From the NCBI GenBank assembly GCA_030324005.1, contig JARDVH010000132.1, positions 91,635,905 through 91,699,904 of the forward strand: a stretch of DNA of 64,000 nucleotides, in the 5' to 3' direction. The position numbers and the translations under genes were made by a program. The stretch is from Negaprion brevirostris (lineage: Eukaryota). This document shows, one piece after another, positions 32,957 through 34,019 of the stretch; the stretch's first letter is position 1; each line of letters opens with the position of its first letter. Under the pieces are notes generated by a model. It had not been told where the DNA came from. It searched no databases and was given only the letters and a program-made list of their open reading frames with translations.

Positions 32957-33581
32957 ATGGACAATGCAAGGATGAACTCCTTTCTAGACTATTCCATCAT
33001 TAACGGAGAAACTGGGACCTGCTCCTCCAGAAGTTACCATGTAGATCCAGGAATTACAACTTATCAGTCTTGTGCCGTTAACAATAATAACTGCAGCGCT
33101 GATGACCGCTATCTCGTGAGCAGAAGCGTCCAAATAGGCGCTCCTCCTCCTTCTCATCACCATCACCAGACTAGCTACACACATCACAACAACCTGGGCA
33201 TCTCCTACAGTGCCCACCCCAACTGTGGGGCAGGATACCCAGCCCAGAGCTTTAACACAGGCTACAGTCATTACTCACTGAATCAAGAGACGGATGGCAA
33301 CGGAGGATACCCTCAGTGTGCTCCTGCTGTCTACCCTGGAAACATTGCCTCAGCTATCAGTCCTCATAACCACGGCTATGGCGGGATGGTGGGGCCAGGC
33401 CAATATTCCCACCACCCTTACGGACAGGAACAGCAGAGTTTAGCCCTGGCTGCGGGTTGTCACCCTCTGTCACCCGTCCATGGTAGTCACCAGGAAGCCT
33501 GCTGCTCCCCGTCTGCAGAGACCCCTCCCCCAGCACAAACCTTTGACTGGATGAAGGTGAAGAGGAATCCTCCAAAAACAG
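32957..33581 (+). CDS. hoxa1: HoxA1 coding exon 1
   Basis: [12 protein letters not shown], short His run, [16 protein letters not shown] (Hox1 hexapeptide). Donor CAG|GTAAAT at 33581/33582, phase 1. Confidence 0.96.
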
Positions 33582-34019
33582 GTAAATTCTCTATTCCAGG
33601 TACATTCCTTCCTACAGGTAACTCTTAAGGTCGAAAACCGATACTAATGAGAGAGCCGAGGAAAGCGATTATAAAGCGTGTCAGACTCGGGCTTCGCAAA
33701 AATCTTAATCTGTTGCATGTTGTTCAAACTGATTTGATGGCCGCACCTTTCGCCTACATTGTCCTGTTCTTTGATCTATCCTTTTCCTCCCTGTCTTATC
33801 AGCATTATGTGAAGCATAATTTAAACATCAGCTAGCTGATGACATGTAACAGTTGTAGAGTAATCCTTTCAGGCTTTCCTGACAAGACATTTCTAAACTA
33901 CTGAAAGGGTAATGATTGATTATCAATGCAGTAAAACTAGTCCAGCAGTTGTCGTATTCTATCTTTTAAATCCTCTTGACTTACCTGCTTTGTGATTTTT
34001 TTTGTGCCCCCCGATTTAG

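Follow-up and report, generated by a model that had tools for sequence, protein, structure and literature searches.

Three in-frame donor motifs at the end of HoxA1 exon 1 in the shark Negaprion brevirostris, a probable tandem 5′ splice-site cluster

Coding exon 1 of HoxA1 in Negaprion brevirostris ends in three splice-donor motifs at an exact spacing of 18 nt. The locus raises the question of whether the two downstream motifs are used as donors, and whether their use would tune the length of the linker between the hexapeptide and the homeodomain. The array is a real, somewhat unusual sequence feature. A linker-tuning mechanism in HoxA1 is possible but improbable. The window, i.e., the whole stretch of DNA analysed, is 64,000 nt in length (assembly GCA_030324005.1, contig JARDVH010000132.1, positions 91,635,905 to 91,699,904 of the forward strand). 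Coordinates are given as window positions; all features listed are on the + strand.

Gene structure and donor motifs

The 3′ end of the HoxA cluster lies within the window and comprises four genes with hexapeptide and homeodomain, all on the + strand. They are labelled A4, A3, A2 and A1 on the basis of gene order and motifs. The array is located at the end of exon 1 in HoxA1, the last of the four. Coding exon 1 extends from the ATG to donor 1 (32957..33581, phase 1) and contains the hexapeptide core FDWM, the Pbx-binding motif (33542..33553; aligned with HoxB1 of PDB 1b72 via P0125). The intron (33582..34019) is 438 nt in length from donor 1, with the acceptor AG at 34018-34019. Hox introns are described as changing slowly in sharks: between skate and horn shark, their lengths in three genes differ by 0–4 nt (PMC2746220). 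Coding exon 2 (34020..34372) encodes the linker remainder, the homeodomain and the C-terminus. Both exons are open reading frames. Identity to the annotated HoxA1 of Mustelus asterias (P0125) is about 99% (207/208 in exon 1, 115/116 in exon 2).

The three donor motifs named in the initial annotation, with GT at 33582, 33600 and 33618, are exact and 18 nt apart. Donor 1, CAG/GTAAAT (33579..33587), forms 8 Watson-Crick pairs with U1 (duplex energy -8.3 kcal/mol) and matches the annotated linker. It is followed by pyrimidine-rich spacer 1 (33585..33596; 14/20 pyrimidines at intron +7..+26). Candidate donor-like site 2, CAG/GTACAT (33597..33605), forms 7 pairs (-7.1 kcal/mol), would add GKFSIP and is followed by pyrimidine-rich spacer 2 (33603..33614). 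Candidate donor-like site 3, CAG/GTAACT (33615..33623), forms 9 pairs (-8.0 kcal/mol) and would add [12 protein letters not shown]. The 5′ end of U1 used for the pairing energies was taken from the same genome. As claimed earlier, the frame is open before 33626: read-through gives [15 protein letters not shown] and ends at an in-frame TAA (33626..33628). The proposed extensions of 6 and 12 residues are likewise borne out, with introns of 438, 420 and 402 nt, all multiples of 3; an in-frame change of linker distance, of the Antp/Ubx type, is thus possible. A fourth in-frame donor-like site, AAG/GTCGAA (33627..33635; GT at 33630, 3′ of the stop), is weak (-4.1 kcal/mol) and was absent from the initial annotation. 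At the HoxA4-like donor (977-985) and at the donor of a group-1 paralog (L014), an in-frame stop follows within two codons; in HoxA1, 15 codons are open.

Other splice-like features are present in or near exon 1. A strong donor-like site, CAG/GTTGGT (-9.1 kcal/mol), occurs at 32911-32919, 43 nt 5′ of the HoxA1 ATG; splicing from it, provided that the site is transcribed, would leave out the coding portion of exon 1. Isoform X2 of Heptranchias perlo HoxA1 (P0123) lacks 24 exon-1 residues, and the gap ends directly before QTFDWM. A matching acceptor-like site is present in the window at 33514-33533 (AG at 33532-3, 14/20 pyrimidines); the window has CAC where H. perlo encodes Arg, and consequently no GT at the inferred donor. 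An in-frame internal intron of exon 1, varying among sharks, is possible. At what is taken to be the position of the mouse Hoxa1-T donor, the likely equivalent GGY codons (33305-33313) read GGA GGA TAC, without GT. This shark may therefore lack the Hoxa1-T donor.

Repeat character, background frequency and origin

The array was initially described as a degenerate 18-nt tandem repeat. The exact 18-nt spacing stands, and units 1 and 2 match at 12/18 positions. The repeat character is less well founded: TRF at score 30 reported nothing at the array, and outside the CAGGTA cores the two spacers match at 6/12 positions, a likeness at the level of composition (shuffle p=0.22). The cores are intact and the spacers have drifted. 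This could mean selection on the cores, but the array was picked by those cores.

Background sites were defined as donor-like sequences whose U1 pairing equals or exceeds that of the weakest array member. Loci chosen for having the triple pattern were excluded; a set that contained them (21 triples in 174 sites) was not used. The background rate is 0.00069 per position (103 sites in 149,290). Just one of the 103 donor-like sites, that at 33582, is followed in frame by two others within 60 nt. The Poisson probability of two such followers is ~9e-5, and ~5e-6 with equal spacing. Expectation among ~40 Hox donors is 0.004, i.e., occurrence there is unlikely; among an assumed 200,000 donors, ~19 cases, ~1 of them equally spaced, are expected for this pattern, which was defined post hoc. 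The array exceeds independent chance. No extra donor-like site within 60 nt was found at five other Hox donors (0/5: HoxA2, A3, A4 and the group-1 paralogs L014 and L015, in the authors' labelling probably HoxB1 and HoxD1).

The exact triple pattern has at least 38 matches in the genome, at no fewer than 13 places as grouped by the authors. The 12 places listed apart from HoxA1 are all plain tandem repeats, and nine of them belong to one 18-mer family. Derivation of the array from this family was considered and rejected; the HoxA1 spacer matches it at 3/12 positions. The family is dispersed, has similar flanks and consists of 2–4 tandem copies beginning with CAGGTA (L001, L004, L009, L010, L012); it occurs in genome G000 on contigs C31, C99, C146, C150 and C160, and also C163 and C173. 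Although unrelated to the HoxA1 array, it supplies donor-like tandem motifs in the genome. A small, old local duplication of the donor would be the simplest origin of the array.

Donor competition and alternative readings

The array is probably a tandem 5′ splice-site cluster in which donor 1 is dominant and donors 2 and 3 are either unused or used without regulation at a low level; confidence in this reading is modest. Three sites at 18-nt steps lie within the TASS limit of 30 nt between successive donor motifs. In human tandem clusters, as reported in PMC8055015, one site is usually dominant by at least tenfold, and minor sites are above noise in only 20%. A small local duplication would likely have left the three in-frame motifs. 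These would be too close together for the usual intron-proximal preference and would hence compete by affinity and context. Full preference for the intron-proximal donor is described for a separation of 45 nt (PMC3413131), versus 18 and 36 nt here. TIA1/TIAR would bind at the pyrimidine-rich spacer that directly follows donor 1, to the advantage of this upstream donor. Such a tract behind an upstream donor is described as favouring that donor via TIA proteins, even against a stronger downstream donor (PMC2766253). Pyrimidines number 14/20 behind donor 1 and 8/20 behind donor 3; the U content of the spacers is only 7–8/20, below the ideal for TIA. In the local fold, accessibility is lowest at donor 3 (mean unpaired 0.39, versus 0.57 and 0.67 for the other two). 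Leakage to donors 2 or 3 would stay in frame and add 6 or 12 residues to an already long linker, with the insert between its conserved halves KVKRNPPKT and GEFGFAGQ, and for these reasons would be tolerated rather than selected.

Dominance of donor 1 agrees with the protein record. Its use gives the linker of 26/27 chondrichthyan HoxA1 proteins (all members of four clusters; 23 species by name count), in which the span from FxWM to RTxF is 28 residues in 26 and 29 in one chimaera model; the insert was found in 0/27. It was found in 0/188 fetched homologs, of which 143 are scorable: the span is 28 residues in 140, 27 in one and 29 in two, and none has 34 or 40. The 45 unscored rows are mostly intron read-throughs or truncated. 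Among these 45, rattlesnake HoxA1 models P0149 and P0151 have a linker shorter by 3 residues, which may be a true deletion or an artefact of the models. For M. asterias, whose HoxA1 is near-identical, the donor-1 form is the only one recorded. Targeted protein searches gave no database match to the read-through tail and no read-through or insert-bearing shark protein. Metagenome contigs scanned for a shark-type exon end with the donor pattern gave 0 matches, an uninformative result. HoxA1 is mainly embryonic. The lack of annotated long forms therefore counts for little, since minor isoforms of the embryo can escape annotation.

The strength of donor 3, which is not weak by U1 pairing alone, counts against donor-1 dominance. 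Donors 2 and 3, at -7.1 and -8.0 kcal/mol versus -8.3 for donor 1, are of credible strength; the likely HoxA2 and likely HoxA3 donors, for comparison, give -5.4 and -7.2 kcal/mol. A crude Boltzmann model based solely on U1 pairing predicts a split of 0.57, 0.08 and 0.35 among donors 1, 2 and 3. Since donor 3 is close to donor 1 in U1 pairing, some use of the extra donors is plausible. It could go further: donor 3, and weakly donor 2, might be substantially used by U1 affinity without regulation, the lineage then making a tolerated HoxA1 with 12 more residues. The predicted share of about one third for donor 3 fits this, as does its frame, which is kept and would therefore not provoke nonsense-mediated decay. 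It also fits a stochastic, affinity-based model for small differences in exon length, under which splicing should be divided between neighbouring donors whose affinities are alike (PMC1449888). The donor-1 form as the only one on record in a near-identical species speaks against it, however, as do the low accessibility of donor 3 and its downstream pyrimidine tract, the poorest of the array. Substantial use of donor 3 is unlikely.

A further reading is regulated, selected tuning as in Drosophila Antp, with donor choice by stage or tissue and three linker lengths differing in Pbx cooperativity or DNA affinity. Sharks would then vary the hexapeptide-homeodomain linker of HoxA1 in three 6-residue steps, changing HoxA1-Pbx cooperativity during hindbrain patterning. 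Both the reading and this consequence are improbable. The architecture of the HoxA1 array is the same as in Antp, independent chance would rarely produce such an array at a Hox donor, and intact cores stand beside diverged spacers. On the other side, a long-linker isoform is absent from the 27 chondrichthyan and 188 total proteins, linker length is near-invariant across vertebrates, and both group-1 paralogs of the same genome lack the array. Because the group-1 linker already has ~20 residues and is reportedly disordered in the HoxB1-Pbx1 crystal, 6–12 extra residues would alter it proportionally less than the Antp insert alters its linker. The fly precedent invoked by the initial annotation is itself sound as far as the sources describe it: Antp has long and short YPWM-homeodomain linkers with different activities (PMC6602345), and linker length matters for the Ubx-Exd interaction (PMC5003318). 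The open-access literature searched yielded no report of tandem donors or of linker isoforms for HoxA1, and nothing relevant on the length of the group-1 linker.

The three CAGGTA motifs could instead be putative Z-boxes, a ZEB1/ZEB2 repressor cluster at the exon-intron border acting as DNA, their likeness to donors being incidental. The literature describes CAGGTA as a Z-box of ZEB1, with a MYB example reported to span the exon 1-intron 1 junction (PMC3979034). Z-boxes would explain the intact cores without new isoforms, but they need no spacing in multiples of 3. A match is expected anyway, because CAGGTA is also a common donor core, and this reading is very improbable. Recursive or dual-specificity use of the later AG/GT units (acceptor first, then donor), as suggested in the initial annotation, can practically be dismissed: recursive splicing is known in short introns, mostly in a rare stochastic mode (PMC10156609), and the units have 12/20 and 14/20 upstream pyrimidines, but the pieces excised from donor 1 would measure only 18 or 36 nt, against 37–65 nt for the screened human ultra-short introns (PMC4463651), no YTNAY branch-like motif occurs upstream of either later AG (the true acceptor has two, with 16/20 pyrimidines), the whole intron is just 438 nt, and the sole strong upstream donor-like site (32914) precedes the start codon.

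With donors 2 and 3 silent or of minor use, as in the tandem cluster preferred here, the array is an ordinary tandem donor cluster and carries little weight. With regulated use of both, it would bring the Hox tuning described in flies to a vertebrate, in an otherwise almost invariant linker. Regulated use would also provide a natural three-step test of linker length against HoxA1-Pbx binding.

Comparison with known systems

Ubx uses microexons and one alternative donor over very long introns. Shark HoxA1 differs in having one intron of 438 nt and no microexon. Common to both is a hexapeptide-homeodomain distance that splicing alters in Ubx (PMC5003318, PMC6602345) and could alter in HoxA1.

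With TASS as described in PMC8055015, the array shares donor motifs no more than 30 nt apart, a cluster size of 3 in the common range of 2–5 and preservation of frame. It differs in its +18/+36 shifts at an exact period, the common shift being +/-4, and in minor sites that in HoxA1 are known as motifs.

Mammalian Hoxa1-T is alternative splicing of the same gene (10.1101/2023.04.24.538176). The splice reported there lies within exon 1, shifts the frame and gives a product without the homeodomain, diverging in mouse after residue 114; the linker is unchanged (10.1101/2023.04.24.538176).

In Antp, a 12-nt alternative splice is reported to add GKCQ to the linker and to shift activation versus repression (PMC6602345). 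Shark HoxA1 resembles Antp in where its hexapeptide exon could be extended: alternative splicing at the 3′ end of this exon adds a few residues starting with GK between hexapeptide and homeodomain in Antp (PMC6602345), and would do so in the shark. The Antp isoforms are demonstrated, developmentally regulated and functionally distinct, with a very short linker and two sites (PMC6602345). Shark HoxA1, by contrast, is described here from its sequence, and has three sites and a long, length-conserved group-1 linker.
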